A DNA stretch of 64,000 nt, from contig OZ024740.1 of NCBI GenBank assembly GCA_964016885.1, forward strand, positions 67,828,001-67,892,000, in the 5' to 3' direction. Below, one piece after another: positions 3,003 through 62,440 of this stretch (positions are counted from its first letter, which is position 1; every line of letters starts with the position of its first letter). The stretch comes from Eledone cirrhosa. Lineage: Eukaryota. Position numbers and translations under genes: made by a program. The notes under the pieces were generated by a model. It was not told the origin of the DNA. It did no database searches and saw nothing but the letters and a program-made list of their open reading frames with translations.

Positions 3003-3224
3003 GATATATTTCTTTATTTACCATAAAGGCATAAAAAGAAGGGACAAATACAAAGGGGGAGTTTACATACAATCGAGTAAAAAGTGTATGAAATGAAAAT
3101 AATCGAAAACAACCTCAAAAGGGAGGGGACGTGATGGGGGTTGCACACACCCCCGAAAAAGGGGTGCAATCCTTTGCCCGGGGAGCACATGGAGAAGGTG
3201 CTCCCCTCTCCTTCACTTTTTTAC

Positions 3225-6200
3225 CTACAGGATGGTATACAGAGAAGGCCCATTTACACGAGCCATTCTCGCCACTATCACCCACCTTTCATAAAACTGC
3301 CTGTGGCCAAGCACCTCTCTGTCCATTCTTATCCTTCTTCCGAAGTGATATCGGAAGAAGTAGACCAGACTATGGCCAGAGAGGAAGTTGCCTGACGTCA
3401 GACCTTTCAATCGTGTCCACCAAACAACCTCTTTCAACATGGCTATTACGCACAGAAAAACCGCCTTTGCTTCCTTTGTGAAGAGGGGAGGCGGTTTGAT
3501 TGTCATCACGGACTCGGCGGTCAATTGAATCGGCGCCACCCGCGACAGCAGTCGTTCGGCGTAGCCCCACAGATCAGTCACGCCCGGACATTGCACTAAT
3601 GCGTGCGCAACGGTTTCTTCGTGACGCACGCATCTAGGGCAAATCTTTTTCGAGGGATCCCTGCCCGGGCGCCCGTGTCTGTAGAGCCTCTCTCGAACGG
3701 GTAGAGCCCCCCGGTAGCACTGCCAGGCTAGTGACTTCTGGAAGTTGTCCATTGGTCCCGGGCCGAAAGTCCTACCGAACAGGCTGGCCAGTTCGTCCTC
3801 TTCCATGTCCAGCGACTCTCCAAGGGTGTCATCGCCCCTGCTAGGCACCAGCCTTCTATAGAATGATGAGGTGGATTCTCCACCGATGGCCTGGCCCGTT
3901 TGCCAGAGAGCCCTGAGCGCCTGAGCACACTCAGTGTGCCAATCTCCCAGTTTTCCGGATCTTTGCTTGACCCAGGACTGCAGCTCGGTGAGCGAGACGA
4001 GTCTCGGAAAGGCTCGTTTCACGAACGGAGCCCACACCGGTTGACCAGTGAGGAATACCTGTAGGTGCCGTAGCCTTAATGCGTGGCGACGCATCATCAA
4101 CCACGGCATCCCCAGCCCTCCTTTCGAAGGTTTTTGGCAGCAGATGGATCTTCTCACCATAGGAGGGCGCTTCTTCCAAAGAAATTGGAAGAGCATGCGT
4201 TCCATGGTGGTGAGGGTTTGCTTAGGACAAGGCACGACAGTCAGGCGGTAGTAAGTGACGGACGCTATGTAAATGTTCGCCACCTCCGCCCGGCCTTTTA
4301 GGGACAGCTTGCACTTGGCCCATTTCTGGGTTAGTGCAAACACCTTGTTCGTAACCTCGTCCCAGTTCTTTTCCACCTGGAGGTCCGGTCCAAACCAGAC
4401 CCCAAGCAACTTTACCGGGCCCTCCATCCAGTGTCCGACGACACCGTTGGGAGGCAACGGTCTTCCCCTCCACGTTCCGAGTTGCAGCCCGATGGATTTT
4501 TCCCGGTCCAGTTTCGCTCCTGACAACCTTTCATAATCCTCCAGTAAGGTACCGATCGCCTCGATCTCCGAGTTGGTCGATACCATTACTTGTACGTCAT
4601 CGGCGTAGGCCGACACCGCTTTGCTCAATCCTGGTTCCAGGGGGATACCCTGCAGCAACTCTAACTTCCTCAGTAAAGGCTTGAGAGTCAATACGTACAG
4701 AAGGGAGGAGAGAGGGCACCCCTGTCGAATGAATCGTGTGATATCGAACGGCTTCGAAAGGTAGCCGTTCACCTTGATCCTAGAACAGATGTGGTTGCTA
4801 TGTAAGGCAGTGATCCAGCCTCTGAAAACAGGACCGAACCCAGCCGCCGCTGGGCACCGCATCCAGGTAACCATGGTCGACCCTATCGAAGGCCTTAGAC
4901 TGATCCAAGTTGATCAGGGCCCCACCGAAGCCGGGTTTGTTGCCAACCTTCTCTATGATGTATCGCATGAGGTGGAGGTTATCGTGAATGGACCTGGATG
5001 TGATAGCACATGTCTGCGCATCTCCCACCAGGCTACCCACGACAAGCGCCAACCTCTTTGCTAACACCTTGGCCAAAATCTTTAACTCTGTGTTTAGCAG
5101 GGTTATGGGCCGAACATTATTTATACTATCCCTCTTGTTCTCGTCCTTCCTCACCAGCGAGACTACGCCCTTGGCTACAGAACAAGGAATTCTCCCGTTC
5201 TGCTGCCAATTGCAGTATACCGCTTCGAGGAGTTCGGAGAAGAAGACCGGCATTGCTAAATAAAGTTCGTAAGGTATACCATCGAGACCTGGAGATTTGC
5301 GTCTGCTGCATTGGCTCAGCACATTCCCGATCTCATCAGCCGAGATTGGTCCCTCGCAGGACTCTGCCTCTTCGCTCGAGAGACGCGGCAGGCCGTCAGG
5401 TATGGACCGAAATCCACGTCCCCGCCCGGACCCTCGCCTCCCCTGAATAATCGGGCAAAGTGCCTTTGAAAGGCGTCGCACATCTGCTTAGGCTCCCGGA
5501 TCACCCGTCCATCCTCGTCTTGCAACGACCGGAGGGTGGATCGATTTCCACTCTTAGCTTCTGTCACGCGGGCCCAGCCAACGGCTTTGGCCCCCTCATT
5601 ACCTAGAGCACGTATTTTACTTCGAATGACGCAGCCTTCGTGCTTTGCATCGAACAACTGGTTCAAGGCCGTCCTCGATGCCAGCACTCTGGCCACATCT
5701 TCGCTCTTGATTGCCTCTTCTAATTTACCTGTTAATACTTTCTCGTTTCTATTCCTATCGGCAGCTAACATCTTGCTATAACTTATTGATTCTCTTCTAA
5801 TCTCTCTTTTGAGAGATGCCCACCATCGGTTGTTGACGATTGCACCCGTCAACCTCTCCTTAACTAATCTGCTAATCCGGTCTCTGTAACCCTCTTTTGC
5901 CGGTAAAGACAAATTAAGTTTCCAGTAACCGGGACCCTGTCTATGTGTTCTCTCGAGATTGACTACGCAGGTCACTAATTTGTGATCCGTATATCCAACC
6001 GTGCGCATTTCTGGACAGCTTAATATGTCCCTATCCTTATTTCTAACTAAGAATCTATCTAAGTACGATCTAGATTGACCACTGTGGTTCGTTCAAGTCC
6101 AGGTAGGCACAGTTGGATATCTATCGACCAAGTTAAAACGGTCGAGTAACCCCTTGAGGCTGTTACACCCCCTCTATTAGGACATGCTCCCTGCATAGTC

Positions 6201-6651
6201 CCAACCTGCATCTAGGATGTCATTCCAATCCCCCCGCTAGAAGCAGGGAACGCGACGTTCCCAGAAAAGTCTCCAAACGCTGGAAGAAGTCCGGCCGTTC
6301 AGCTCCGAAAGGGGAGTAGACGGCGACCAGTCTCAAGGCCGCACCTTCACTACTGCCAACGTCTAGTACCAACAAACGACCCTCCGGGTCCGAGTGAACA
6401 ACCTGTACGGCAAGACCCAGGTGTTTTTGCAGCAGTACGACAACCCCACCCCCACCTCCAGGTTGACAGAGAGATGCATGCACCTCAAAGTCATCGAAGG
6501 TAGGGGCCAGCTTCCGCACGACGCTGATCCGAGTCTCACAGATAACCATTACATTTATAACACATGACCTGAGGTCATTTAGAAGCTTTACTTGCTTCCA
6601 AGTTGAGCCCAGGTCACGTGCATTCAAACATCCTACTCTTAACACATCCAT
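3225..6651 (-). pseudogene. LINE ORF2 (APE endonuclease-RT-zinc finger), split by several frameshifts
   Basis: Fragments 6220-6651 (CLNAR, ICETR, GRLL..VAVYSP), 5316-6008 (TDHKLV, PGYWKLN), 4798-5481 (KSPGLDG, RPITLLNTELKILAKVLA), 3225-4874 (YADD, GGLGMP, CPRC..ETVAHALVQC). Confidence 0.92.
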
Positions 6652-14002: not shown

Positions 14003-14052
<50 letters not shown>

Positions 14053-14364
14053 TATAGATATATTTATATAATATATGTATATATGTATATATATATATAT
14101 ATATGTACATATATATACATATATATATTTATATATATATATAATTAAGTTAAAAGTGTACATCTACATATGTATACGGAAATATTAGTATGCATATAAA
14201 TACACACATGTATACATATGTACATGTACTAAGTTTTTCACTGGACACTTTACTGTGAGTGTCCAGCTAGTCTGTATGTAACCAAACAGACAAACCGGGT
14301 TTTAGAGTCATACGGGATTTCAAGGAAACACATTTCCTCTATTCTCCAGAGAGCCAGACAGGAA

Positions 14365-14405
14365 TATTGGACTAGTTTCGATGTTATTACATCTCATCAG
14401 CAATA
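14365..14405 (-). ncRNA. Minimal type I hammerhead ribozyme, variant A
   Basis: Minus strand: tattg CTGATGA gatgt aata acatc GAAA CTAG TC^ caata. Confidence 0.82.
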
Positions 14406-14946
14406 TATACCCATCTTCCGGCTTCTCTAGAGAATCGTAAAAGCACATATCGTTATATGCTTTTTCTATGAAAATTAGTAGTGGGCAGACTAATTTGCAT
14501 AGAACGTGAGTCCAATATTCCTGTCTGGCTCTCTGGAGAATAGAGGAAATGTGTTTCCTTGAAAACCCGTATGACTCTAAAACCCGGTTTGTCTGTTTGG
14601 TTACATACAGACTAGCTGGACACTCACAGTAAAGTGTCCAGTGAAAAACTTAGTACATGTATATATGGATACATGTGTGTATTTATATGCATACTAATAT
14701 TTCCGTATACATATGTAGATGTACACTTTTAACTTAATTGTTTAAGCGTCAGTCATACAAAAGTGAGTTAGAAGCGAAACGAAATTTAATTTCGTTTCGT
14801 TATTTGTTTTTATCGTTTCCGCTGAACCGGTGCGTACACTGACTCACGTTCTATGCAAATTAGTCTGCCCACTACTAATTTTCATAGAAAAAGCATATAA
14901 CGATATGTGCTTTTACGATTCTCTAGAGAAGCCGGAAGATGGGTCT

Positions 14947-14989
14947 ATATTGCTGATGAGATGTAATAACATCGAAACTAGTCCAATAT
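14947..14989 (+). ncRNA. Minimal type I hammerhead ribozyme, variant A
   Basis: atattg CTGATGA gatgt-aata-acatc GAAA CTAG TC^ caatat; stem I atattg/caatat; palindromic ACTAGT stem III. Confidence 0.85.
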
Positions 14990-15527
14990 TCCTGTCTGGC
15001 TCTCTGGTGAATAGAGGAAATGTGTTTCCTTGAAAACCCGTATGACTCTAAAACCCGGTTTGTCTGTTTGGTTACATACAGACTAGCTGGACACTCACAG
15101 TAAAGTGTCCAGTGAAAAACTCAGTACATGTACATATGTATACATGTGTGTATTTATATGCATACTAATATTTCCGTATACATATGTAGATGTACACTTT
15201 TAACTTAATTGTTTAAGCGTCAGTCATACAAAAGTGAGTTAGAAGCGAAACGAAATTTAATTTCGTTTCGTTTGTAACTCACTTTTGTATGACTGACGCT
15301 TAAACAATTAAGTTAAAAATGTACATCTACATATGCATACTGAAATACTAGTGTGTATATGAATACACACACGTATACATATGTAGGTGTAACAAGTCTT
15401 TCACTGGTTGCTTTACTGTGAGCAACCCAGCTATTCTGTATGTAAACACACAGACAAACCGGTTTTTAGAGTCATACTGGTTTTCGGGGGAACACCTTCC
15501 CTCTATTCTCCAGAAGGCCAGACAAGG

Positions 15528-15572
15528 AATATTGAACTAGTTTCGTTGTTGTTACAACTCATCAGCAATATT
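15528..15572 (-). ncRNA. Minimal type I hammerhead ribozyme, variant B
   Basis: Minus strand: aatattg CTGATGA gttgt-aaca-acaac GAAA CTAG TT^ caatatt. Confidence 0.8.
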
Positions 15573-16143
15573 TACCTATCTACCGGCCCTTCTGGAGAAT
15601 TGTAAAAGCACATATCGTTATATGCTTTTTCTATGAAAATTAGTAGTGGGCAGACTAATTTGCATAGAGTGTGAGTACGCACCAGTTCAGCGGAGACGAT
15701 AAAAACAAATAACAAAACGAAATTAAATTTCGCCTTCTGGAGAATAGAGGGAAGGTGTTCCCCCGAAAACCAGTATGACTCTAAAAACCGGTTTGTCTGT
15801 GTGTTTACATACATAATAGCTGGGTTGCTCACAGTAAAGCAGCCAGTGAAAGACTTGTTACACCTACATATGTATACGTGTGTGTATTCATATACACACT
15901 AGTATTTCAGTATGCATATGTAGATGTACATTTTTAACTTAATTGTTTAAGCGTCAGTCATACAAAAGTGAGTTACAAACGAAACGAAATTCAATTTCGT
16001 TTCGTTATTTGTTTTATCGTCTCCGCTGAACCGGTGCGTACTCACACTCTATGCAAATTAGTCTGCCCACTACTAATTTTCATAGAAAAAGCATATAACG
16101 ATATGTGCATTTACAATTCTCCAGAAGAGCCGGTAGATAGGTA

Positions 16144-16188
16144 AATATTGCTGATGAGTTGTAACAACAACGAAACTAGTTCAATATT
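16144..16188 (+). ncRNA. Minimal type I hammerhead ribozyme, variant B
   Basis: aatattg CTGATGA gttgt-aaca-acaac GAAA CTAG TT^ caatatt. Confidence 0.82.
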
Positions 16189-16610
16189 CCTTGTCTGGCC
16201 TTCTGGAGAATAGAGGGAAGGTGTTCCCCCGAAAACCAGTATGACTCTAAAAACCGGTTTGTCTGTGTGTTTACATACAGAATAGCTGGGTTGCTCACAG
16301 TAAAGCAACCAGTGAAAGACTTGTTACACCTACATATGTATACGTGTGTGTATTCATATACACACTAGTATTTCAGTATGCATATGTAGATGTACATTTT
16401 TAACTTAATTGTTTAAGCGTCAGTCATACAAAAGTGAGTTACAAACGAAACGAAATTTAATTTCGTTTCGTTATTTGTTTTTATCGTCTCCGCTGAACCG
16501 GTGCGTACTCACACTCTATGCAAATTAGTCTGCCCACTACTAATTTTCATAGAAAAAGCATATAATGATATGTGCATTTACAATTCTCCAGAAGAGCCGG
16601 TAGATAGGTA

Positions 16611-16655
16611 AATATTGCTGATGAGTTGTAACAACAACGAAACTAGTTCAATATT
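16611..16655 (+). ncRNA. Minimal type I hammerhead ribozyme, variant B
   Basis: Same motif one 467-bp unit downstream. Confidence 0.82.
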
Positions 16656-16920
16656 CCTTGTCTGGCCTTCTGGAGAATAGAGGGAAGGTGTTCCCCCGAA
16701 AACCAGTATGACTCTAAAAACCGGTTTGTCTGTGTGTTTACATACAGAATAGCTGGGTTGCTCACAGTAAAGCAACCAGTGAAAGACTCGTTACACCTAC
16801 ATATGTATACGTGTGTGTATTCATATACACACTAGTATTTCAGTATGCATATGTAGATGTACATTTTTAACTTAATTTTTTATATATATATATACATTCA
16901 TATACATACAGACATATATG

Positions 16921-17009
<89 letters not shown>

Positions 17010-17010
17010 A

Positions 17011-17177
17011 TTATGTAATAAACAACATAAGGCAATTATTTAATTTACCAGTGGTTTCTTAAAAGCAAACAAATTTTGCTTTCAATAATCAGAATGAAAA
17101 AATCGTGGTGTATTCCTGTTTGCTTTTAAGAAACCACTTGTAAATGAAATAATTGCCTTATGTTGTTTATTACATAA
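17011..17177. repeat. Imperfect inverted repeat (about 60-bp arms) next to (TA)n
   Basis: ttatgtaataaacaacataaggcaattattt ... aaataattgccttatgttgtttattacataa. Confidence 0.8.
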
Positions 17178-17245
17178 CTATTAAGCTCTGTAACCTACAT
17201 AGAGCACTCCTTTTTCCTGGACCTTTCCGACGGAATTACTTCATT

Positions 17246-17966: not shown

Positions 17967-18073
17967 ATAGGAACCAGTAAGACCCCGACGGCTGAGCTCA
18001 AGCCATTTCGACGGCTAATTCTAGAATTAGCCGTCGAAACGGCTTGAGCTCAGCCGTCGGGGTCTTACTGGTT

Positions 18074-18078
<5 letters not shown>
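17967..18078. repeat. 112-bp near-perfect palindrome with no spacer, between (TA)n tracts
   Basis: ataggaaccagtaagaccccgacggctgagctc...ttct|agaa...gagctcagccgtcggggtcttactggttcctat; one mismatch seen. Confidence 0.92.
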
Positions 18079-18618: not shown

Positions 18619-18800
18619 CGGTGGATTGGCAGTATCGGTAGAGGGTCGGACGCCATGCTTTCCAGCATAGTTACGTCCCTTTGCGGTCTGAGTTCAAATT
18701 CCGTCGAGGTTCACTTTGCCTTTCATCCTTGCAGGGTCTATAATATAAATTACCAGTAATATACTGGGTAATTGATGGCCTTGTGCCAAAAGTAGAAAAA
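18619..18800 (+). mobile_element. tRNA-derived SINE (family with GCCTTTCATCC..GGGGTCGATAAAATA core)
   Basis: A-box-like TGGCAGTATCGG, B-box GAGTTCAAATCC, conserved core and TTGCTGGCCTTGTGCCAAAAGTAGAAA tail; more than 10 copies in window. Confidence 0.82.
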
Positions 18801-19411
18801 ATGATATATACATATGTACACACAATCACACAATACAAACACTCATACACACACATACACACACACACACTCTCTCTCTCACACACACATATATATATAT
18901 ATAATTGTGTGTTTTATATTTTTACCATTGTGATAGCGAGAGAGGATAGTGCGTATGGCCATTTTCTTAACATCCTAGATCGTTGAGAAAAAGTAAGTTA
19001 TCTCCAAACTAGTAGAAGCCTGGTCCGAATATTTGTAGCATAGAGCGCCCAAAATCAAGGTGATGGTATTAAATTAGGCCACCGATTATATCTATTATCC
19101 AAGGTGACGACAGTGGCATTTGATCTCATAACGCAACTTACCAGAACAAATATCACAATGTATCCAATCGACAGAAACATTGAAAGTGAAATTTGACATC
19201 TGCAGGATTAGAAATCAGAGAGCAGGGAACAGTTGTTAGTGCTCTTTGCACTAACGACTGTACCAAATAATCACCAAACCCATGTATGTATGTATGTATG
19301 TATGTATGCATGTATGTATGTATGTATGTATGTATGTATGTATGTATGTATGTATGTATGTATGTATGTATGTATGTATGTATGTATGTATGTATGTATG
19401 TATGTATGTAT

Positions 19412-19990: not shown

Positions 19991-21844
19991 CGTACTCGAA
20001 AACGAGTTGGCAGCCACCATGTATGTCTGTCTGTCTGTCTGTCTGTATGTATGTATGTATGTATGTATGCATGTATGTATGCCTTTGTCAGGGCATTCTT
20101 CTAGGAGAAGGCAACTCAGGAAACTGGGGTAACTCCTCATTTAAAAAAGCTTCAAGCAGAGGCATCCCTTTATATGTGACATTTCTTTCTTGCCATAGGC
20201 AAATCCGTAACACGACTAAAAAGCGACGTCACGCTTAGGTATCAGACGATGGCATTACTCGATATCCAGCTGCAGCTATCAATCGTATATGTATGCTGTC
20301 TGAGTGTATGTGTACATGTATGTATATATGCATCTAAGTATGTATGCATTTATGTACGTTTGTATGTATATATGTATGTATATATGTATATGTGTATGCA
20401 TACGTTCGTTTCAACTATATATTTACATTAACCTCTTCTTACTTTGCTGTATATGCAACAATTACCTATCACATTCTGATGTTAGTTTCCTTTTATGCAA
20501 GCCTAGGCCTTCTTCCTCAATGAGGAGCCACTATTATTATGGTGCAAACTTTACAATTTACACATAATCTAAGCTTATATTTACAATTTTGTTGGCGTAA
20601 ATGGCACTTGGGTGTTTAGGGCGCTAAACTAGTTCATCCCCTTCTCCCAAGTAAATAATTTCAGCCAATTAATTTTGCAAACTAAAATATTTAATTTCTC
20701 ATACTGCTAAGAAAATTACACAACACAGTCAAACTCACCTACGCCAAATCATGTGACAGGTCATAACAATCATACAAACGTCTCCAGCGTTTTGGGTTTT
20801 TACCAGTTTATTAATTGATCGCAGGAAAATACTAGACATTTAATTAATACAAATTCGTATAAAACTGTGATACTTAAACGTTAAGTAATGCGTCTGTCTT
20901 AAATATCTGCCCCCTCGGTGGCTGCCTAGATGGCATTAATGGTAGCACCGACACTGCCTTTGGGACAATAATGTGGTGGAAATTAGGAGCTTTAAACTTA
21001 GTATCACAACTACGAGTATAAGGCAGGACAAGGAAAGGATAATCAACACAAGTCGATTAAATATAAGGTTTTGTGAAAAATTGCGAGTATATTACCGAAT
21101 GTGTGTCAGACACCCAAAGAAATCTGAAGAGGAAAACAGACAACGTCGTGAATTTAACCAAAATAAAGATAGTAATACATATATATCAGTGTACCTACAT
21201 CATCATCATAATCATAATTATCCTGATCATCATCATCATCATCATCATCATCACCGTCGTCATCATCACCATCAACATCATCAACCTCATCATCATCGTC
21301 CTCCTCAACGACGTGTTGGTCTATCATCATCATCAGCAGCAACAACACCGTTTCATATGCATTTGCTATGCTGGCCTGGTTTAGATGTGTTGTCACGTTT
21401 TGAGATTTTACATACCACATAAACACATCATGCAACCATGTTTCCTTTAAGTATATTTTCTGTTTTCGAATACCCTCCTCACGCCAAATACTTTATAGCG
21501 TGTTCTGGGTGAGTTTTATATTCAAGCCAGCACTACCACTTTACACTTGACTGCGTGCATTTAATGTGGCACCAGCAGTATTACTACTTTACTGAGTGGA
21601 TTGTATGGTAGTGGTATTTCAGATACAATTTAATTTTCAGTATGTACAGCACAGTAGAGGAAATATGCTCATATTAGTAGCATTTAACTAACGAATAATC
21701 TTTTCAACTTGTAGTACTAGCGGGGGAAATGCATATGCATGCAACAGACCAGCACTGTATAAATTGTGAGGTAGGCACTTAAAATAGGCTGGGTGAAAGA
21801 AATGCCCAAAGCTTATTATAGCAACGAAGATGTTATAATAATAA

Positions 21845-22432
21845 GGGTGGCAGATTGGAAGTATCGGTAGGGGGTCGGACGCCATGCTTTGCAGTATAGA
21901 GTTACGGCTCTTTATGATCTGTGTTCAAATCCCGCCGAGGTTAACTTTGCCTTTCATCCTTATCGGGTTGATATCATAAAATACCAGTCAAGCACTGCGG
22001 TCGATTTAATCGATGTTTCCTTCCCCGCAAATTACTGGCCTTGTGCCTATATAAGAAATCATTATGATAAAAACAAACTTGTTGGTAGTATCGGTTAGCC
22101 GACAGACAACATGCTTCGCATCAGACAGTTATGGCCCTTTACGTTCTGATTTCAATTACCACGGAGGTTAACTTTTCATTTAATCCTTACGTGGTCGATA
22201 AAATAAAGCATCAGTAATGCACTGGGGTAATTGCTGGCCTTGTACCAACAGTAGAAACAATTATAATAACAACGAAGTATCGGTAGAGCGTCAGACACCA
22301 TGCTTTGCAGTATAGACTTATGACCCTTTACTTTCTGAGTTCAAATGCCACCGAGGTTAACTTTGCTTTCGTCCTTAAGTGGTCGATAAAATAAAGCACC
22401 AGTAATACACCTTGTGTCAAATGTAAAAACAA
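21845..22432 (+). mobile_element. Three head-to-tail copies of the SINE family
   Basis: Core motif repeats near 21940, 22165 and 22355. Confidence 0.82.
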
Positions 22433-25144: not shown

Positions 25145-25407
25145 TGTAGTGACTGAGATGGTCGCTTAGCAACTAGCAGTTGCCTCCCCTTAACAACTCT
25201 TCAGAGAGCGGAGGCAATATACATCCGGTCACAGACGCTGGTTCACTCACTCTCTTTGGACCGCGGACATGAACAGACGTGAAAGGATTCGCTCCTCAAA
25301 ATATTGACGTTGTAGGAAATTTATTAAATGATCGCATTTAATAAAATGATCGTTAGATTTGATTGTTCATTTATTTATTCAACAAAGAGAAACATTCTTT
25401 TCCTTTA
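25145..25407 (+). repeat. 5' LTR
   Basis: TGTAGTGACTGAG...TTCCTTTA; about 5 substitutions versus the 3' LTR by eye. Confidence 0.95.
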
Positions 25408-25408
25408 T

Positions 25409-25426
25409 TGGTGACCCCGACGTGAT
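25409..25426 (+). promoter_or_regulatory. Primer-binding site complementary to tRNA-Trp 3' end
   Basis: TGGTGACCCCGACGTGAT, 1 nt after the LTR. Confidence 0.9.
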
Positions 25427-25874
25427 TCAAACACGCGGCCTTCTGACTCACGCATACAGACGAACACGAAAATACAACACAAAAGAAAGAGTTTTTTCGA
25501 CGACTAACAAAAGATTTCTGGATATAGAATTTTGCTTTCAACCCTCTGTTAAAATTACAAATGGAGACCCAAAAATGTTGTTTTCCCGCGTTCAGCTTGT
25601 CTTCTTCAATCCCAGCCATCTGATTGGCTACATCGTGCCACATGACGGCTTCTTCATCACGGACACATTTTTAAATCAGCCATCTTGGCTTTTCTTACCA
25701 TACAATTTTCATGGAAAATGATTTATTTTATTATTCAAATTTTCTTTAGAATATTTTTTTAAAGAAAAAAAATTAGCAGTATTTCAAAACGGCTACCACC
25801 AAGTACCAGCCATCAGCAGCAACACCTGGCTAACTATTAACCAACACCAAAAATTCATAAAATACGTGGGCACC

Positions 25875-26660
25875 ATGAGTCAACATCATTTGCTGTCCTT
25901 CGCAGGCGACATCAAGTTATGGTTTGCGCAGCTGGAATGTTTCTTTGAATTAACCAAGACGAAAGAACAGCATAAGCTGAAGGTCCTGATCAATGGCCTA
26001 CCTGTTTCCTTGGCATTTTCGGTGAAGGACGTTGTCACGGATTTGGACGCCGCCGATACCTACAGCTCATTAAAAAACGAAATTCTTCGGAGAAATACCA
26101 AGTCGGTAGAGAGTCGTTTTCAGGAGTTGTTGGACGATGCTCAAATGGGTGACAGGAAGCCGAGCTCCTATTTGCGACATTTGCGGGAGTTGAGCGACTC
26201 CCAGGGGATTGACACCCCCTTCATAAAGCAGCTCCTTTTCTCACGTTTACCGCCAAGTGCGCAAAGGATTTTGGTTAATAGTTTGGAGAGGGAGTCCTTA
26301 GAGCAACTTGCCGCGTCCGCGGATAGAATACTTGAGGTGGACTCGAACAGCAATCGGCATAATCCTTATGTGGCTTCAGCTTGTGTCCCCCCACGCAATT
26401 CTTCTGTGGCCGACAGCACACTGTTGGAGTTGATTGAAGCTCTCACCAAAAATGTAGAAGATTTGACTGTACAACACAGAGAGCCTTCTCAACGTTTGAG
26501 GTATCGTTCGCCGCCGTCCTCTATTCATCGCCAGCACTACAACGCAGACAACAATAATTCTTCGTTTTGTTGGTATCATGCTAACTTCGGCAGTAGGGCA
26601 CAACGTTGTCGCACGCCCTGTAATTACAAGAGATCGGGAAACGCAAAGCAGAGCCACTAG
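25875..26660 (+). CDS. gag: Gypsy Gag
   Basis: First ATG at 25875; LWFAQLE, MGDRKPSSYLRHLR, CWYHANFGSRAQRCRTPC knuckle variant. Confidence 0.88.
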   Translation: MSQHHLLSFAGDIKLWFAQLECFFELTKTKEQHKLKVLINGLPVSLAFSVKDVVTDLDAADTYSSLKNEILRRNTKSVESRFQELLDDAQMGDRKPSSYLRHLRELSDSQGIDTPFIKQLLFSRLPPSAQRILVNSLERESLEQLAASADRILEVDSNSNRHNPYVASACVPPRNSSVADSTLLELIEALTKNVEDLTVQHREPSQRLRYRSPPSSIHRQHYNADNNNSSFCWYHANFGSRAQRCRTPCNYKRSGNAKQSH

Positions 26661-26679
26661 GGGCGGCTAGTGAACTCTG
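26636..26679 (+). promoter_or_regulatory. Programmed -1 ribosomal frameshift signal (gag-pol)
   Basis: G_GGA_AAC slippery heptamer in gag phase, 6-nt spacer, then hairpin CAGAG..CACTAG-gggcgg-CTAGTG..CTCTG; the -1 frame is open into the protease N-terminus. Confidence 0.8.
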
Positions 26680-29600
26680 GGAAAACCGACCGAACCGCCA
26701 TCTTTTCGTATACGACCTGTGGTCAAACAAATTTTTCCTTGTCTGGCGCGTCGCCGAGTATTTGGCCAGTCAGTTATCTCCAAAAACCCTCAGCTGAATC
26801 AAATATAAATCTAGGAGCAGTCAACCACACGGCCATTCGAACGTACGGGCAAATTTCGCTTCCTCTTCGGTTAAAAAATGTGCGTCATGATTTGAAGTGG
26901 AAGTTTACTATCGCCGACTTGCCATACGCCATTTTGGGAGCGGATTTTCTCCACCATTTTTCCTTGTTGGTGGACATTCGCAGACAACGCCTTTTTGATG
27001 CTGAAACAGGCCTTTCTTTCGAGGGTTCAGAGCCGGACGTCGCCACTGTCAGTCCTTCCTTTTTCTTGGCTGAAGTGGGCAACCAGTATCAAAGCCTGTT
27101 ACATTCATTCCTTCAGTTGACGCAGGGAAAGTTACGAATTACTAGCCCGGATCATGCGATTGAACACTTCATATCCACTACAGGTCCACCTGTTTTCTCA
27201 CGTCCTCGAAGATTATCTACAGAGAAGTTGAAAGCTGCACGTCTTGAATTCGACCACATGCTGAAATTAGGAATAATTCGGTGTTCCACAAGTCCTTGGG
27301 CATCGCCTCTACATATGGTACTTAAATCTTCTGGTGATTGGAGACCGACGGGTGACTACCGACGCTTAAACGCGATTACTGTGCCTGACCGTTATCCAAT
27401 CCCGCATTTGCAGGATTTTGCATCGTCATTGCAGGGTTGCAGAATCTTTTCTAAGCTTGATTTGATCCGCGCTTATAATCAAATTCCGGTTAACAAGGAG
27501 GATATCCCAAAGACTGCTATTGCCACTCCTTTCGGATCATTCGAGTTCCTCACTATGCCTTTCGGCCTTAGCAATGCTGCAAGTACCTTCCAACGATTTA
27601 TGGATGATGTTACTCGGGGCCTGGATTTTGTGTACACGTATATCGATGACGTGTTGATTGCTAGTTCTTCCCCTCAGCAGCATTCAAAGCATCTGGATCT
27701 CGTATTTCGTCGTTTACAGAGATATAAGGTTCGTATTAATGCTTCCAAGTGTGTTTTCGGCTCGACTTCACTAACATTTTTAGGCCATCTGATTGACGCC
27801 GATGGTATTCGACCTCTTCCTGAGAAGGTTAAGGCAGTATCGGATTTGCCTCCGCCAAGTTCACTGCGACAATTACGTCAATTCTTAGGCCTTGTAAATT
27901 TTTATAGGTGATTCGTACTTGGTTGTTCCAAATTGCTGTTCTCGTTGACATAAATTTTTAAGGGTTGCCGGCGTAAGAATATGGACATTTCCTTAAATAA
28001 AACGCAGCTTGAAGATTTTAAAAAAGTGAAAAAGGCGTTAGCGAACGCGTCTTTGCTCACCCACCCAGTACCCAACGCCGAGCTATCGCTCTGTGTTGAT
28101 GCTTCGGATAGCGCCGTGGGCGCAGTCTTACAGAAGAAGTGTGATGGGGTACAGCAACCACTCGAGTTCTTTTCGAGGAAGTTAAAGCCTGGCGAAACTC
28201 GCTATAGCACCTTTGGAAGGGAGCTATTAGCAATTTATTTATCAGTGAAACGTTTTGCTCATGTACTTGAAGGAAGAATATTCACCATTTTCACTGATCA
28301 TAAACCTTTGACGTTTGCTCTTCGAACTAAAGCAGACAAATACTCGCCCAGAGAAATGAAACATCTGGACTTCCTCTCACAGTTCACGAACGACATTCAA
28401 CATATTCCGGGTTCTTTGAATACAGCGGCCGATGCGCTGTCTCTCCTGCCGATCGCATCGATTTCGTCTTCCGAGGAGATAGATTTACATCGAATGGCAG
28501 CTGCCCAACCCACTCTCGAATCGTTGGATGTTACATCGCCAGAGTTTGTACATTGCAACTTGAAATACATTCCGATCTCAACTGCTGACGGACAAATACT
28601 GTGTGATGTTTCGTTGGACTCACCACGACCTCTAGTCCCAGTGGAACATCGACGAACTGTGTTTCTTGCTTTACATGGCATTTCTCACCCAGGAGTATCA
28701 GCCTCAGTAAAACTCATAACAGCCAGATTTTTCTGGCCTGATATGAGACGTGACATTGCTGCTTGGTGTCGTTCCTGTGTCGCTTGCCAACAAGCGAAAG
28801 TTCATAGACATGTTAAGGCTCCTCTCGGAACCTTCACCTGCCCGGATGCAAGATTTCGTCACATTCATGTGGATATCGTCGGCCCGTGACCGGTTAGTCG
28901 TGGTTTTTCGTATTTTTTGACGATTGTTGACCGTTTGTCGCGTTGGCCTGAAGCCGTCCCTATAACAGATATCACCGCTGAAACCACAGCCCGTACTCTC
29001 GTATCTTCATGGATCGCTCGTTTTGGTGTACCAACCATCATAACAACGGATCGTGGTCGTCAATTTGAGTCTAACCTCTTCCGAGAATTAACCCAAATCC
29101 TGGGGGCTACTTGAATAAGAACCATGGCTTACCACCTAGCCTCAAACGGAATGGTGGAAAGATTCCACTGGAAACTCAAAGCCTCCTTAAGGGCTTCCAT
29201 GGACTCTTCACGTTGGAGCGAGTACCTACCTATTGTGTTGTTGGGTATTCGGTCGACGGTAAAGGTGGACCTTGGGTTCTCCTCTGCCGAATTAGTTTAT
29301 GGTACTCCTCTGGCGTTACCGGGGCAAATGCTGGCCCCTTTTGACCTGACTTCGCAGGACCCCGCTTCCTACGTGTCCCGGCTTCGCTCTTATTTCAAGG
29401 ATCTACCACCGATGGGCACTAGGAAGCAGACTGTAAAAACTGCCGTCCCAAGGGATATTGCCTTGAGGACACATGTGTTCGTTAGAGACGACGCCGTGAG
29501 ACCCCCTCTTCAACGGCCGTACTCTGGACCCTATCGTGTGCTTGCTCGCACAGACAAACATTTCACACTGGACATTCGGGGTTCCAAGGAAACGGTTTCC

Positions 29601-29783
29601 GTTAATCGTCTCAAACGAGCAAACCTGGACAATGACACAATGACACTTGAAACTCAAATGCCCCCTTCTTTTTCTTTGCCACATAGGCCTATTTCTTCCC
29701 CCCCCCCCCACCATCAACACACAGAACTACGACCCGTTCTGAGCGACGGGTGCATTGGCCCCGTAAGCTATGCAGTAATATAA
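26642..29783 (+). pseudogene. pol: Gypsy Pol (PR-RT-RNase H-IN) with stops and frameshifts
   Basis: [77 protein letters not shown]; in-frame stops at about 27911, 28889 and 29114. Confidence 0.93.
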
Positions 29784-30196
29784 ACTGAATTGTATTCTTT
29801 TTTTTCTTCCAATTGTTTTTGCTGTATATTGCATTTTGTTACTTTTTGATTCTTGACTGCCTACGGCAGTGTCAATATATTATATTTTTCGTAACATTAC
29901 GACTGTTGTCAATTCTGACACAGTCCATTTTTTTAGTGCATTTTTATAACTATGCTACATATGGCATTTTCATTGCCTAGCAAAAAAATGTTTTCTTGTT
30001 TATCGCATTTGGGGCCCCTTTATTGCGAAGAGTGTTATCTTTTCATGCATTTTGCATCTTTTACTGTACGTTTTTTTTTCTGTGTTAATGCTTGCAGACA
30101 TGAACCTATTTCTTTTTTTTTTCATAATTTGTTGATACATGCTTCTACATTTTGTAAACTACCTTCGCTTCATTGTTAACGATTTTTCGAGGTGAA

Positions 30197-30459
30197 TGTA
30201 GTGACTGAGATGGTCGCTTAGCAACTAGCAGTTGCCTCCCCTTAACAACTCTTCAGAGATCGGAGGCAATATACATCCGGTCCCAGACGCAGGTTCACTC
30301 ACTCTCTTTGGACTGCGGACATGAACAGACGTGAAAGGATTCGCTCCTCAAAATATTGACGTTGTAGGAAATTTATTAAATGATCGCATTTAATAAAATG
30401 ATCGTTAGATTTGATTGTTCATTTATTTATTCAACAAAGAGAAACATTATTTTCCTTTA
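30197..30459 (+). repeat. 3' LTR
   Basis: Copy of 25145-25407, followed by TSD TATG. Confidence 0.95.
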
Positions 30460-30547
30460 TATGCAACCAAACACACCCTAGTCTACTAAATTAATGGCTC
30501 AGTGGTAATATATATAATTATTATCAATTACATGTGGGGGATTACAA

Positions 30548-33833: not shown

Positions 33834-33869
33834 GAAAAGTGTAATTTTCTACACAAAACGAAGGTTATA

Positions 33870-34390
33870 GAGAGAATTGAGGTTGGTAATGGCACATGGA
33901 ATATATAAGAGACAGAATACTTTTTTGTGAAAAAACATATAATTTTATAAGGTAAGGAAATAATAAAGGGTATAAAAAATGACCGGTTTCGATGGGTCTG
34001 CAAAAGCCATCTTTTCAAATGTTGATTAATATTAAGAAAAATTAATAATACGAAGAGTTAAAATTTGAGATTTGAAAATTCAAGTATAAAATTCATTGTG
34101 GGATTTCATAGTAGTTTTCATCTAGGTAGCAACAACAGGTTGACTGCTGTATCCCTTTCTGGTAGTGAATGAGAAGTTATTTGGGGTGTGGGTTATTTTA
34201 TAAAGGTCAGATTTAGCAATGGCCAACTGGCCAGCTGCTGGTCAGTGAGGGGGTGGAAGCAATATACATACACATATCTTCAGTGGTGGGTAGGAGAGTG
34301 GAGCGTGATAGAAAGGGATTTAGTGCACTTACACCTATATATACACACATACCTTCATCCACACATACATACATATACATATACATACAC

Positions 34391-34433
<43 letters not shown>

Positions 34434-34500
34434 CACACATACATACACACACACATACATATACATACACACATACACACACACACACCTATATACACAT

Positions 34501-34545
<45 letters not shown>

Positions 34546-35627
34546 TATATATACATACACATACATCCAGATACACACATACATACACACACACACACCC
34601 ACACATATATATATACACACACATATATATATATATACACATACGCATACATCCAGATACACACATACATACACACACACAATACATACATCCACATGCA
34701 CACACATACACACACACACATATACACATACATACACCCACACACAGAGAAATGGCCTCCAAATATATATATATATACATACATACACATATATTTTTTC
34801 CATAATATAAGAAGTTGGGACAGTGAAATTAAAATACAAGTCATTCTGATCACATTGAGTTCTTCATGTAGATTGGGCCCCGCAACCGACAGTGGTGAAT
34901 TCTGTGTGCGCATATATATATAGATATATGTGTGTGCACGTGCAGGGTTTAACATGGATGTGTTGGTCACACAAAGGCATGGTCTGTCAACGAATAAACC
35001 TGATTCTACAGAATTGGTCTCTGGTCTTTAATAGTAGTGATTCCGTGCGTATGTGTGTTTATATTTTATGACAATTCTATTGGGGTGATAAACCGTTTAG
35101 TTTTGGTTTAAATTTGTTAAGGAATAGATTTTCTTTGTTTATTCTTTGTTGCTGTGTGAACGAATCTGAGCACTTGTAGAAGGGGAAGATTTTAAAGTTG
35201 GGTAGTGTCATTCCTGCGCAGTTCGCAGTATGGCTGCTCAAGGGGATTTTTCTTGTGTTAGCGTCCCGGATTTGTTGGCGGAAATCTGACCTTTATAAAA
35301 TAACCCACACCCCAAATAACTTCTCATTCACTACCAGAAAGGGACACAGCAGTCAACCTGTTGTTGCTACCTAGATGAAAACTAATATGAAATCCCACAA
35401 TGAATTTTATACTTGAATTTTCAAATCTCAAATTATAACTCTTCGTATTATTAATTTTTCTTAATATTAATCAACATTTGAAAAGATGGCTTTTGCAGAC
35501 CCATCGAAACCGGTCATTTTTTATACCCTTTATTATTTCCTTACCTTATAAAATTATATGTTTTTTCACAAAAAAGTATTCTGTCTCTTATATATTCCAT
35601 GTGCCATTACCAACCTCAATTTTCTCT
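33870..35627 (-). mobile_element. 5'-truncated Penelope-like element with inverted pseudo-LTR copy
   Basis: Arms about 33870-34214 and 35282-35627 are inverted; GIY-YIG C-terminal remnant lies between them; arms carry a degenerate hammerhead (gatgg..ccatc GAAACCGGTC). Confidence 0.78.
35077..35280 (-). pseudogene. C-terminus of Penelope GIY-YIG endonuclease
   Basis: My translation: RQQIRDANTRKIPLSSHTANCAGMTLPNFKIFPFYKCSDSFTQQQRINKENLFLNKFKPKLNGLSPQ*; not in the ORF track. Confidence 0.72.
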
Positions 35628-37944: not shown

Positions 37945-39402
37945 CTAACCGTGGTACCCGGCGTTCACGGGATAAAGTATTTTGGAACGCAGGCCTCCAA
38001 CAGACCTAATCGTGGAAAAACTGCATGCCTGGACAACATGTAAAGATAATAAACCAAATATTCTGATGGCTGGATAATATTTAAGATTTTCCTCGATGAA
38101 GCAGGAAAAATGCAGGTTTTCACCTAATGCGAGCTCTAGGGGATCAAGAAAATGAATTTATTTTATGTGCATAACATGCTTCGAAATTTCTGGGAAACGG
38201 CTAGACGTAACGCCTCCAAAAAGCCCTAAAAAGCTGAAAAAATGAAGTTTTTCACCTAATGCCTAGGCCATAAAAAAGTTGGATTTTCTTGGCTCATGGT
38301 ATGAAGAAGAGATTGACTAATACATAGTTACAATTTCAATGAAATTTGTCTGACGTAACGCCTAAAACAAAAAGGCTTAAAAAAACGCAGTTTTTCACCT
38401 AATGTGGACCCTAGGAGACAAAAGGTTGAATTCCTTTATGTGCTTATCACTCCCTGAAACATAAGTAATACACATGTAAAGTTTGAAAAAAATCGGTTGG
38501 GTACTCCTCGAGTTTTAGGGAATCAAACTCACAGACACACACACACAGACAGGGAAGTGACGTAATGCAGACAGTCAGGCATACAGACAGATATTATAAG
38601 GGCGCGATGTTATATGTATGTATCTATCTAAAAAGAGAGAGACTAAGAATTATAGAGAAAGATCGCTAAATCGCCTAATGCGGTCCCTAGGGCATTGAAA
38701 ATTTGAAATTATTTTTGCTCAGAATACTCCCAGAAACTTAAGAATTACCTGCGTAAAGTTTGAAAACAGTCGGTTCGGTGGTTCTCGAGTTTTAGTGATT
38801 CAAACTCACACACACACATACAGACATCCTCAGTTTTATATATATAGACTAGCAGAATCCACACGTGGTGCGGTTTTCTGCTAGTCTATATATCTAAAAC
38901 AGAGAATGTCTGTCTGTCTGTCAGCTCACTAAAACTTGAGAACCATCCAACCGATTGTTTTCAAACTTTAGACATGTAATACTTATGGTCTTGTGAGTGT
39001 TTTGTGCAAACATTATTTCAAATTTTTAATGCCCTAGGGACCGCATTAGGCGATTTAGCGTTCTCTCTATATAATTCTTAGTCTTTCTTTTTAGATAGAT
39101 ACATAGATATAATGTTGCGCCCTTATAATATCTGTCTGTATGTCTGGCTGTCTGCATTACGTCATTATGACGCGCTCAGCGCGATTCCCTCGGCCTTAGT
39201 GACCAAAGTCAGTAGAGAGGGGTAGGTAAGGTTTCTGTAGCACGTGTTTTAGCGTCTATTCACTATCTCTCTCTCCCTCTCTCCCTCCCGCTATCCCCCT
39301 CTTGTAGTCTGTCTCTTTCTTTCACTCTCACTCTCTCTCTACGCACGTGTTTCCACTGTCAGACAGACAGACAGAGAAATTGCTGGTTATATATATAAGT
39401 AG
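37945..39402. mobile_element. Helitron/DINE-1-like non-autonomous composite inserted in a pLTR-like repeat
   Basis: Starts ACTAACCGTGGTACCCGGCGTTCACGGG and ends (CAGA)n...TTATATATATAAGTAGAT; host repeat resumes at about 39403; internal inverted arms about 38568-38850 and 38885-39164. Confidence 0.6.
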
Positions 39403-39497
39403 ATTATATACATTTCGAAGGTACTGTGCTGTTTTTTCAGTACGTCCTCGTCAGATAAAATACATGAATTGAGGTATTTCATACATCAATTCATGTA

Positions 39498-39559
39498 TTT
39501 TATCTGACGAGGACGTATTGAAAAAACAGCACAGTACCTTCGAAATATATATAATAAAA
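39498..39559 (+). ncRNA. Type I hammerhead ribozyme motif (inverted copy at about 39403-39460)
   Basis: ttttat CTGACGA ggacgtattg-aaaaaacagca-cagtaccttc GAAA tatata TA^ ataaaa. Confidence 0.68.
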
Positions 39560-44464: not shown

Positions 44465-47400
44465 ATGGCGACTATACAGGTTGGATGTTCGAATGTACGT
44501 GGCTCGGGCATGCCCTGGAAACATGGCCAGCTTTTAAATGATCTCAATTCACATTGCATAGATGTGATAGCCATCACCGAGTCCAGGATTCATGACAGGC
44601 AGCAGCTAACCCCCATGTTCGATGACTTTGAGATCTACGTATCTCTCTGTCAGCCAGGAGGTGGAGGGGGAGTTGGTGTTCTGTTTCGAAAAAACTTGGA
44701 TCTCAAAGTACAGACGATTCACTTGGAACGGAGGGCAGCTTGGTAGTCCTGAAAGTAAATGGTAGTGAAGGTGGACCTTTCAGATTCGTGGCCGTATATG
44801 CTCCGACTGGGACATCGCGACCAGAGTTCTTCAAGCGTCTGGAGCCATTCCTGGGAACGTCTCGCTCCTTAGTATTAGCGGGGGACTGAAATGGCATCTT
44901 AGATGCACGTTGGGACTATGTAGGAGCTTGTGATAAAAGAGGGGGGGGGGGGGGTAATAGCCTGAAAAATTTAATCAGCCTATTCCAACTGGCTGATAGA
45001 TATCGACTAGACTTCCCAAGTGTACCACTGTGGACGTGGAGCACCCGCACTGGGTCTTCTAGATCGTATTTAGATAGATTTTTAATTAGACAGAAAGATA
45101 AGGAAACATTAAGCAGTCCACAAATGCACATGGTTGCCTATTCAGACCTCAAATTAGTCACCTGCGTAGTGAACCTTGATAGAACACATAGACAGGGACC
45201 CGGATACTGGAAGCTAAACATGTCGCTTCCGGCACGTAAGGCCTACAGTAAACGGATTAGCACCTTAGTTAAGTGCCAGTTGACGGGGGCGATCGTCAAC
45301 AACAGGTGGTGAAGCTCTCTCAAGAGACAATTAGAATGGAATCGATAGTATTTCGCAAGAAAGTAGCTTTAGAAAAAACAAAGCCGAAAAGGAACTGGTA
45401 GCTAAAGTAGAAGAGACCCTTAGGAATGGCAGTACAGCTGAAGTGCTAGCGGCGAGAACGGCACTAGAACGGCACTAGACAATTTCTTCAACGTGAAACA
45501 CAAAGGTTGTATTGTCAGAAGTAGAACACGTGCTCTAAGAAACGAGGGTACCAAAGCTGTTAGCTGGGCCCGAGTGGCAGATGCGAAAAGTGACAACAAA
45601 TCCACAATTCGGTCCTTGCAAGACAAAGATGGATGCATTCTACTTGAATCCAAGCAGATGTGCACGGTCTTCCAGCAGCATTTTGCACAACTGTTCGGGC
45701 AAAGCGGTACGTCAAGGGAAGTGATGGACTTCAGCTCCTACCTCGACGGCGTACCACGATTCTCGAACAGGGATTCGGTGAGCGAAAGGCCGATCACAGC
45801 GGGCGAAATAGAAGATGCCCTTGGTCGCTGTGGGAAAAGTAAATCACCCGGTTTAGATGAGTGTTACATAGGCATACCAGACTTGTTCTCTGGCGTCCTC
45901 GAAGCGGTCCACTGCAACTAGTAACAGAACGGGAGGATTCCTGTTCTGTAGGCAGAGGCGTAGTAACGCTGATCAGGAAAGATGAGAACAAGGGGGATGA
46001 GATAAGCAATTTCAGGCCCATAACCCTGCTTAACACAGAGTTAAAGATTTTGGCCAAGGTGTTAGCAACGAGGCTGGCGCTTTTCATCTAGAATCTGGCA
46101 GGGGAAGCGCGGACGTGTGCAATCCCGACCAGGTCCATACACGACAACCTCCACCTCATGCGATACATCATACAGAGGGTAGGGTGTAAACCTGACTTCG
46201 GTGGGGATCTGATCAATTTAGATCAGTCTAAGGCATTTGATAGGGTCGACCATCAATACTTGAAAGCGGTTCTCAAGGCGGACGGCTTCGGTCCCGTCTT
46301 CAGAGGCCGGATCGCTGCCATGCACACCAGCATCTGCTCGGCAGTCAAGGTGAATGGCTACCTACTGGAGCCATTCCAAATAATGCGTTCCATCCGTCAG
46401 GGGTGCCTTCTCTTCTCCATTCTGTATGTACTGACTCTCGAGCCATTACTGCGGAAAGTGGAGCTGTTGCAGGGCATCCCGGTCGAACCAGGACTGCGGA
46501 AAGCAGCGTCGGTCTATGTCGACGACATAACCGCAATGGTGTCGATAACCTCGGACATCGGGGTAATCGGTAACCTATTACAGGAATACGAAACGTTGAC
46601 AAGAGCAAGACTAAACCCAAACAAGTCTGTCGGTTTGCAACTCAGCACATGGAGAGGCAAACCCATGTCTTCCGACAGTGTCGTTGGACGCTGGACGGAA
46701 GGACTGGTGAAATTGCTCGGGGTCTGGTTTGGTCCAGACATCCAGGTGGACCAGAACTGGAACGAGGTCACGGCGAAGGTGTTTGCACTTACCCACAAGT
46801 GGGCTGAGTGCAAACTCTCCTTCACAGGTCGAGCAGAGGTGGCGAAAACTTACATAGCGTCCGTCATCTACTACCGCTTGACAGTCGTGCCTTGTCCCCG
46901 TGAATACCTTACCAAAATGGAACCAAGTTCCTCTGGTAGAAACAGGCTCCATTGGTGAGGAGGTCCATCTGCTGTCAACACCCTTCTAACGGAGGGCTGG
47001 GCATGCCGTGACTGATGATGCGCAAACACGCACTGAGGCTACGCCATCTCCAGCTGTTCCTGAACGGTGAATCGGTGTGGCTGTCGTTTGTGAGACGAGC
47101 TCTTCCACAACTCGTCTCACTAACAGAGCTGCAGTCCTGGGTTAAGCGAAGACCGAAAATGGGCGCCTGGCACCTCGAGTGCGTTCAGGGGCTCACAGCC
47201 CTCTACCAAGCGGAAACGGAAATTAGTGGAGACATGACTTCGACATTCTATAGGGGATTAGTAGAAGATAAGTGCGACGACGTTCTAGGTGAAAATCTAG
47301 GCATCGAGGAAGACGAACTGACCAGTTTGTTTGGGAGGACTTTCCGTCCAGGGCTTATGGATAACTTCCAGAGCTGTCTGGCCTGGCAGTGCTACCAAAG

Positions 47401-47884: not shown

Positions 47885-48119
47885 GTTGAAGAAGATAAAC
47901 AGAGGGAAGACGGGTTATCGAGGGTTGTTCTATCCACGGGATGTTAAACAACCCCACAGTAGCGTTACCCCCTCCACCTAATGGGGATTTCAATTGTTTT
48001 ATTTTTATATAGTTTATTGTTATTTATCATTGTTAAAGATTTTATGTAAAACCCCCGCCATCACGTCTTGTAACGTCCCAATGGTGTACCCGGCTGTGGC
48101 AAATAAAGAAAGATATCTT

Positions 48120-49320: not shown

Positions 49321-49324
49321 TATA

Positions 49325-62319: not shown

Positions 62320-62440
<121 letters not shown>

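Follow-up and report, generated by a model that had tools for sequence, protein, structure and literature searches.

The animal retrozymes that lack long terminal repeats (non-LTR retrozymes) were defined as a class by Cervera and de la Pena (2020, PMC7229834). They have a low-GC, non-coding tandem unit of a few hundred bases with one canonical type I hammerhead ribozyme and strong self-pairing; subfamilies co-exist, and Penelope-like elements (PLEs), found in the same genomes, are named as their likely mover. Crustaceans are mentioned there once. A PLE origin of retrozymes was later argued from co-occurrence and similarity to PLE pseudo-LTRs (pLTRs) (bioRxiv 10.64898/2026.07.22.740005, Li, Clavereau and Pollet 2026). 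We analyzed a 64,000-nucleotide (nt) stretch of the Eledone cirrhosa genome (assembly GCA_964016885.1, contig OZ024740.1, positions 67,828,001 to 67,892,000, forward strand), hereafter the window, which contains a hammerhead ribozyme repeat locus at window positions 14143–16877. Judged from its sequence, the locus repeat likely represents a new family within the known class of animal non-LTR retrozymes. We think it probable that it is a non-autonomous retrozyme with two subfamilies, which was inserted into a (TA)n microsatellite by a Penelope-like reverse transcriptase (RT)/endonuclease. Since animal retrozymes are known and their PLE origin has already been argued, the class itself is no surprise; the locus adds an integration footprint consisting of a fixed internal 3′ end, inverted 5′ copies, a (TA)n target, and 5′ ends near the cleavage site.

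PLE insertions contain partial tandems with an adjacent inverted, 5′-truncated copy and a tail of 30 to 40 base pairs (bp) that is often present at one end only, and (TA)n is a frequent target (PMC8557442). Palindromes occur at the inverted junctions, with tail-to-tail joining being the rarer form (PMC3846280). In vitro, a lizard PLE protein nicks AT-rich DNA on both strands and initiates cDNA within the RNA, at two sites delimiting the tail; in these reactions, the ribozyme was dispensable and no reads ended at the ribozyme site (PMC11167929). The layout of the E. cirrhosa locus resembles that of endonuclease-positive (EN+) PLEs, which by motif are of the Neptune/Nematis type, and of non-autonomous PLE derivatives, MRC1 among them (PMC8557442, PMC3846280, and PMC11167929), in its partial tandem plus inverted 5′-truncated copy, apparent one-end extension, microsatellite target, hammerhead in the repeat, and palindromes at junctions. 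It differs in that the unit has no open reading frame and no detectable similarity to a PLE present in the window, and in the less common tail-to-tail arrangement of its two halves.

The locus consists of four segments in alternating orientation, belonging to two variants, A and B (A minus, A plus, B minus, and B plus; S1 to S4), and lies within a TA microsatellite. The left flank is a (TA)n tract at 14006–14142 (period 2 by Tandem Repeats Finder), the likely insertion target, and the right flank is a (TA)n tract at 16881–17009, found with the same program. With unit positions numbered from the predicted cleavage site, S1 (14143–14512, minus strand) is an inverted, 5′-truncated piece of variant A that begins ~140 nt upstream of the cleavage site, includes one ribozyme, and reaches a common 3′ end (unit position 227 of A). 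S2 (14513–15272, plus strand), to which S1 is ~99% identical, comprises a whole 471-nt A unit (14513–14983) and 276 to 289 nt of the next one. S1 and S2 meet head to head in a 4-nt microhomology (14509–14512) that ends exactly at the predicted A cleavage site. S3 (15259–15732, minus strand) is an inverted B piece that runs from a palindrome of the unit (position ~270) through one ribozyme, so placed that its end lies 33 to 47 nt past the common 3′ end. S4 (15732–16877, plus strand) is a direct tandem of 2.46 B units of 467 nt, starting at unit position 17 with a 1-nt overlap with S3 and ending at position 229. The S2/S3 junction (15246–15272) is tail to tail and sits in the unit’s own palindrome, with an overlap of 14 bp exactly (15259–15272) or of 27 bp with one loop mismatch. 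Tandem Repeats Finder reports a direct array only at 15732–16882 (2.5 copies).

The locus thus comprises two pairs, S1+S2 and S3+S4, each a partial tandem with an adjacent inverted, 5′-truncated copy. The two outer ends stop at the same nine bases (A position 227 and B position 229), directly against (TA)n. An extension is present at one end of each pair only, the other end stopping at 227 to 229: the S2/S3 meeting leaves 48 to 62 nt of A and 33 to 47 nt of B beyond the common end, where the inner ends overlap in the palindrome and may have been trimmed by deletion. The A and B units are 471 and 467 nt long and identical in 413 of 473 columns (87%). Copies of one variant diverge by ~0 to 1.7% where long stretches are compared, with a maximum of 3% in a 196-nt part of S3. 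The values are alike in A and B, so the four pieces are of similar age.

The region has a GC content of 32 to 34%, and no ATG frame on the circular form of either unit exceeds 42 amino acids, which makes the unit non-coding. Two frames of 108 to 109 amino acids at 14320 and 15572 span inversion junctions and have no Pfam match; the unit contains no RT or GIY-YIG frame. No tRNA was found in the window, and a B-box pattern has no match inside the locus. Each unit carries, immediately ahead of the common 3′ end, a TA/CA-rich hairpin of degenerate sequence (16324–16396, plus strand, in one copy); it looks like a decayed microsatellite and aligns to (TA)n tracts. As expected of retrozymes, S4 contains two consecutive complete ribozymes (16151 and 16618), and the unit is short (467 to 471 nt), non-coding, below 50% GC, and without LTR structure (the primer binding site and polypurine tract were not searched).

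Five hammerhead cores, all intact, are located at 14400 (minus), 14953 (plus), 15565 (minus), 16151 (plus), and 16618 (plus). Each combines a helix I of 6 to 7 bp, CUGAUGA, a 5-bp helix II with a 4-nt A-rich loop, GAA, and the ACUAGU palindrome; helix I runs on past an internal loop into a long stem. A structural descriptor gave nine matches in the window (five in the locus) and no strict match in any of 30 shuffled windows, and a core pattern matched six times versus none in 100 shuffles. The two A copies have a GUC cleavage triplet and occupy 14347–14419 on the minus strand (predicted cut after 14370) and 14939–15006 on the plus strand (cut after 14983, with a private A>C change in loop 1 at 14945). 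The three B copies have GUU and occupy 15512–15583 on the minus strand (cut after 15535), and 16133–16204 and 16600–16671 on the plus strand (cuts after 16181 and 16648). The Rfam Hammerhead_HH9 model (RF02275) matches all five at 29.8 to 38.2 bits (E from 1.9e-7 to 9.9e-5): 32.9 bits (E 9.6e-6) and 29.8 bits for the A copies in this order, and 38.2 bits for each B copy (E 1.9e-7 for the one in S3). The alignment to this model covers the core, the type I topology, the UA of loop 1, and the A-rich loop 2, whereas helix III lacks the model’s loop. Matches to Rfam microRNA models were rejected as hairpin and microsatellite noise.

Canonical animal ribozymes have a helix I of 6 bp, a helix II of 4 bp, and a helix III of 1 to 2 bp with a palindromic loop, while minimal PLE ribozymes have a helix II of 7 to 8 bp, a helix I of 4 to 5 bp, a poor loop 1, and an extra base after position 9 (PMC4209133). 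By sequence, the ribozymes of the locus fit the canonical type I with a short palindromic helix III and not the minimal PLE type: helix I is 6 to 7 bp with a defined loop 1 and a long extension, helix II is 5 bp, G10.1 directly follows A9 with no extra base between these positions, and there is no unpaired base at the 5′ end of helix II. With the minimal hammerheads of PLE pLTRs, they share the palindromic helix III region and predicted dimer action. The short palindromic helix III also resembles that of axolotl HHR_Amex1, described as cutting far better as a dimer. When the S4 dimer was folded in silico, a constrained double hammerhead (−204.5 kcal/mol) outscored two single hammerheads (−193.5 kcal/mol), so dimer action of the S4 ribozymes is plausible. 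Only one whole unit at the locus (16182–16648, plus strand) lies between two complete same-strand ribozymes, giving a predicted 467-nt RNA monomer.

These results bear on an initial annotation of the locus. Its five hammerheads in two variants, the compensatory change in stem II (an A-U pair in A, U-A in B), the two cleavage triplets, and the non-coding nature of the repeat are all borne out. The simple tandem array that it described is replaced by four alternating segments with two of the ribozymes on the minus strand, and its 467-bp unit length holds for B but not for A. The complementary pair said to enclose the motif (ttctccagaag...cttctggagaa) occurs in this form in B and has a compensated counterpart in A; in each variant, it prolongs helix I. 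The hammerheads had been called minimal, which the published criteria contradict (PMC4209133). The proposed class is retained: the repeat belongs with the animal non-LTR retrozymes as a non-autonomous hammerhead retroelement, and its ribozymes probably act as dimers. Release of RNAs of ~467 nt was also proposed; since the locus consists mostly of inverted pieces, it could free only a single such unit.

The predicted pairing of the unit RNA is extensive (66 to 68% of bases). Folded as a circle and compared with shuffles, the ribozyme strand has z values of −11.5 (A) and −11.0 (B), versus −6.6 and −6.0 for the other strand. Among the 52 substitutions that separate A and B, 14 form seven two-sided pair changes and 6 are one-sided wobble changes, and this covariation reaches well outside the ribozyme. 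When substitutions were placed at random 150 times, the two-sided changes averaged 1.8 with a maximum of 5, and the best energy was −111.8 versus −138.7 observed. A solo distant relative of the unit, flanked by (TA)n, was found at 62523 to ~62910 (plus strand, right end approximate) beside a PLE inverted repeat. It is 62.8% identical to A over 247 nt (E 9e-19); downstream of the core, the similarity score is 82, while shuffles reach at most 54, and the part upstream of it (34 versus 43) is not significant alone. Its hammerhead is intact, with a 7-bp helix I, an ACUAGU helix III, a GUA triplet, and a U-U at the helix II base, and the downstream hairpins are preserved through compensatory changes. 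With this relative added, 20 of 75 predicted pairs show a two-sided change, though many other pairs are broken or gapped in it. A, B, and the solo relative share one and the same unpaired catalytic core, around which the helices covary.

The (TA)n tracts on both sides of the locus and around the solo relative indicate a microsatellite target, as seen in one locus and one relative. A broken PLE at 59190–62327 has the same layout, with an inverted terminal repeat, (TA)n at each end, and a 41-bp tail on one side only; a Penelope-type machine therefore acted in this genome. The element contains RT and GIY-YIG-like frames in two overlapping pieces (59755–61095 and 61008–61913, minus strand), and its repeat carries a CUGACGA-hairpin-GAAA motif (59480, minus; 62078, plus) that failed the hammerhead descriptor. 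Its PLE label rests on motifs, since Pfam gave a weak RT match only (E 0.02) and none of the names listed for 120 of its 157 relatives was informative. From this analysis, mobilization of the unit by a Penelope-like enzyme is likely. The initial annotation had proposed such mobilization; it is probably correct and better supported than was argued there, through an insertion layout that the annotation missed.

Runs holding the family were listed (20 holders in 16 studies plus three added runs), and four of them (X1, X5, X6, and X21) were compared with one B period; depth on the unit does not equal copy number. All of the listed holders are DNA or untyped runs, with no RNA run among them. X1 gave 1021 contigs on one unit; since X1 is possibly the source sample, it is not independent. 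X21, from another study with the same species label, gave 3423 raw reads on one unit. X5 (35 contigs) and X6 (4 contigs) bear other organism labels at low depth, where contamination is possible. The end-to-start joint of the 467-nt period is present in X1, X21 (61 reads), and X6, where a single 497-nt contig spans the whole unit. The repeat is thus a many-copy family, rich in variants, with head-to-tail units in three runs. In X21, variation at the stem II pair is about equally frequent on either side (411 of 580 versus 404 of 554 reads, unphased), and no variant falls in CUGAUGA or GAAA among the best 40 of 77 variant rows. X21 also contains a strand-switch joint elsewhere in the family (5 reads with 3 starts). 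In X1, 68 of 1021 contigs lie only partly on the unit and none continues into unlike sequence, although such contigs break at branch points.

Clusters of read and loose ends in X21 were considered as element ends and rejected. Those at 16075–78, 16118, 16407–10, and 16457–59 all fall on AATT, and starts at 16276 fall on a variant-made GCATGC. We read these clusters, including one at the common 3′ end, as restriction sites of a restriction site–associated DNA library (the enzymes being deduced from the sites), and they were discarded as element ends because of this coincidence. Reads of such a library are unable to probe the end and inversion pattern, which is known from one locus. In the helix III palindrome, 185 of 532 X21 reads show an A>G change, with which G-U pairing would keep the dimer duplex; this change is absent from X1, X5, and X6 and was not counted. 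Separately, one X5 contig departs from the unit at position 303 (corresponding to 16484 in the locus) into an AT run, a further microsatellite junction. Exact ribozyme patterns had no match in viral contigs or metagenomes, and none of 115 metagenome matches to a loose pattern folds as a hammerhead or resembles the unit.

Under the retrozyme interpretation, tandem copies would be transcribed, and neighboring ribozymes would pair their ACUAGU palindromes into a double hammerhead that cuts out unit-length RNAs, which are perhaps ligated to circles. A Penelope-like protein would nick (TA)n DNA, and cDNA would start inside the unit at 227 to 229 or 33 to 62 nt further on (the “tail”). More than one unit would be copied, around a circle or along an uncut multimer, and an inverted, 5′-truncated copy would be joined head to head. 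Two insertions of about equal age, A (S1+S2) and B (S3+S4), would have come to lie tail to tail in the unit palindrome; A and B may have arrived together, or separately with a later deletion running through the palindrome.

A number of observations weigh against this interpretation. Hammerhead_HH9, the outcome of the hammerhead-model search called for in the initial annotation, matches all five copies, but every match is below the gathering score of 52 bits, and Rfam at gathering score has no match in the window. The unconstrained fold of the S4 dimer (−208.7 kcal/mol) lies 4.2 kcal/mol below the double hammerhead and traps the core in inactive pairs, and eight of nine predicted frog retrozyme dimers failed to cleave in vitro, with one of nine cutting (bioRxiv 10.64898/2026.07.22.740005). 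The 471-nt unit is slightly above the 150 to 450 bp of PMC7229834, though within the 51 to 972 bp of bioRxiv 10.64898/2026.07.22.740005. The minus strand gives eight two-sided changes (at −115.1), so covariation alone is no proof of RNA-level selection, and DNA palindrome correction could also yield it. The tails that we deduce (33 to 47 nt for B and 48 to 62 nt for A) partly exceed those typical of PLEs; a target duplication is unreadable because both flanks are (TA)n; and the end and inversion pattern comes from a single locus. The unit has no DNA similarity to the repeat of the neighboring PLE (it scores 36, and shuffles reach 42) or to any of five further repeat elements that were compared, where two weak scores are TA-rich matches. 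Since no similarity is shared with any of these, no partner element was identified; an autonomous Penelope sharing the unit’s 3′ end, which the initial annotation had suggested looking for, was not found in the 64-kb window.

Among the alternatives, we consider it unlikely that the unit is the pLTR of an autonomous PLE and the locus a heap of 5′-truncated, inverted pLTR pieces. Such a layout does match truncated PLE insertions; 24 of 57 frog retrozyme families match transposable elements in Repbase, nearly all of them PLEs (bioRxiv 10.64898/2026.07.22.740005), and shrimp and fly PLEs have ribozymes with a small palindromic helix III (PMC4209133). However, the unit closes head to tail at 467 to 471 nt in S2, S4, X1, and X21 (and in the 497-nt X6 contig), it holds no coding remnant, no X1 contig leads from it into unlike sequence (with the break at branch points noted above), and its ribozyme lacks the marks of the minimal pLTR type. 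Less probable still is a fossil ribozyme in a repeat that spreads as a DNA satellite or as a fold-back element similar to miniature inverted-repeat transposable elements, with covariation arising by DNA palindrome correction. The 370-bp inverted ends of the whole locus, which are 86 to 87% identical and lie in (TA)n, would fit such an element, as would the folding and covariation of the minus strand. Yet these ends belong to two different subfamilies while the internal copies are of equal age, and the unpaired core has remained unchanged in A, B, and the 62% relative, as well as among the best-ranked variants in reads, while the helices around it covary.

A detail of S4 touches the same question. 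Both of its units have A at 16109 and 16576, where S1, S2, and S3 have T, as do all but ~7 of 293,438 depth units in X1. Either one RNA was copied twice or S4 was duplicated locally soon after insertion; local tandem duplication could thus explain the base under the fossil-ribozyme scenario as well. We also tried S3 as a fold-back from S4’s own cDNA, which is disfavored because S3 lacks this private base, unless S4 was homogenized later. Twin priming, known from long interspersed nuclear elements (LINEs), likewise yields 5′ inversions with microhomology, and the window contains RVT_1 and zf-RVT frames at 3225–5487 and 46092–47884. A retrozyme moved by such a LINE-type RT is nonetheless very improbable: twin priming would not place the same internal 3′ end on both outer sides, the element has no poly(A) or simple-repeat tail of its own, and comparison of the window with itself revealed no similarity to LINE ends. 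We give hardly any credence to the alternating layout being an assembly artifact of a many-copy repeat. Tandem and inverted PLE structures do trouble assemblies (PMC8557442), but each segment has private changes, the junctions show microhomology, the raw reads of the other study contain a strand-switch joint, and the window has several other fold-back elements.

Returning to the Penelope-mobilized retrozyme, a more specific reading, which we hold only tentatively, is that the locus preserves, as a fossil record, how a Penelope enzyme copied retrozyme RNAs processed by their ribozymes, with fixed internal priming, repeated passage through ribozyme junctions on a single molecule, and stops at or near the cleavage or ligation site (0 to 4 nt for A and 16 nt for B). 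In this reading, a single event may have drawn on at least three RNA molecules from the two subfamilies, linked via the unit palindrome. S2 starts within 0 to 4 nt of the cleavage site and S4 starts 16 nt from it; the chance of two out of two 5′ ends being this close is ~0.2% (~22 of 469 positions each), a hand-reckoned, post hoc figure. On the other side, a third inversion joint, present in reads, lies at unit positions 58 and 295, and the S1/S2 microhomology alone could account for the S2 5′ end. If the fossil-record reading were true family-wide, the family would provide direct sequence evidence for the still-inferred retrozyme-Penelope cycle and for 5′ ends set in part by the ribozyme site, an effect that the lizard PLE did not show in vitro. 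With two young subfamilies, thousands of reads’ worth of copies, and a 62% relative, the family could test who mobilizes retrozymes and which form of RNA (circular, cut linear, or uncut multimeric) serves as the template.

What sets the locus apart from described retrozymes is its insertion into (TA)n as inverted pairs whose 3′ end is fixed inside the unit. This insertion layout is not described in the main texts of PMC7229834 and bioRxiv 10.64898/2026.07.22.740005, although their supplements may show it; “inverted” occurs zero times in the former and once, in a reference title, in the latter. No retrozyme paper with this layout was recognized by title or abstract start among the matches listed, a search whose scope left out most subscription papers.

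The window as a whole is AT-rich, and both retroelement remnants and tracts of (TA)n, (CT)n, and (CA)n are dense in it. A 221-bp tandem repeat (3.1 copies, 52730–53418, minus strand, with (TA)n at its right end) is probably a second retrozyme family, judging from its motifs: the copy at 53081 passes a relaxed hammerhead descriptor with a 5-bp helix III, and the copy at 53303 has the core. Fold-back or repeat elements at 51335–51763 (which terminates in (TA)n), 39403–39555, and 35880 (minus) have hammerhead-like motifs in which a palindromic (AU)4 run forms helix III. Other fold-back or inverted-end elements are found at 17007–17181, 17967–18078, 33869–35627, 38558–39164, and 48877–49321, several of them adjoining TA or CT tracts. 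Between TA tracts, 63039–63955 contains a 311-bp direct repeat (97%; ~606 bp apart) with no hammerhead by descriptor. A dispersed repeat of 140 to 190 bp, with ~10 partly tandem copies (18619–18815, ~21840–22410, 30550, 33440, 39610, 50000, and 58210–58820), several of which have a B-box-like 9-mer, is possibly a short interspersed nuclear element. Two LINE-like remnants with RVT_1 and zf-RVT, at 3201–6636 (minus) and 44480–47909 (plus), are 71% identical to each other. Last, an LTR retrotransposon at 25145–30460 encodes RT, RNase H, and an integrase zinc domain in interrupted frames between 264-bp terminal repeats that are 98% identical.

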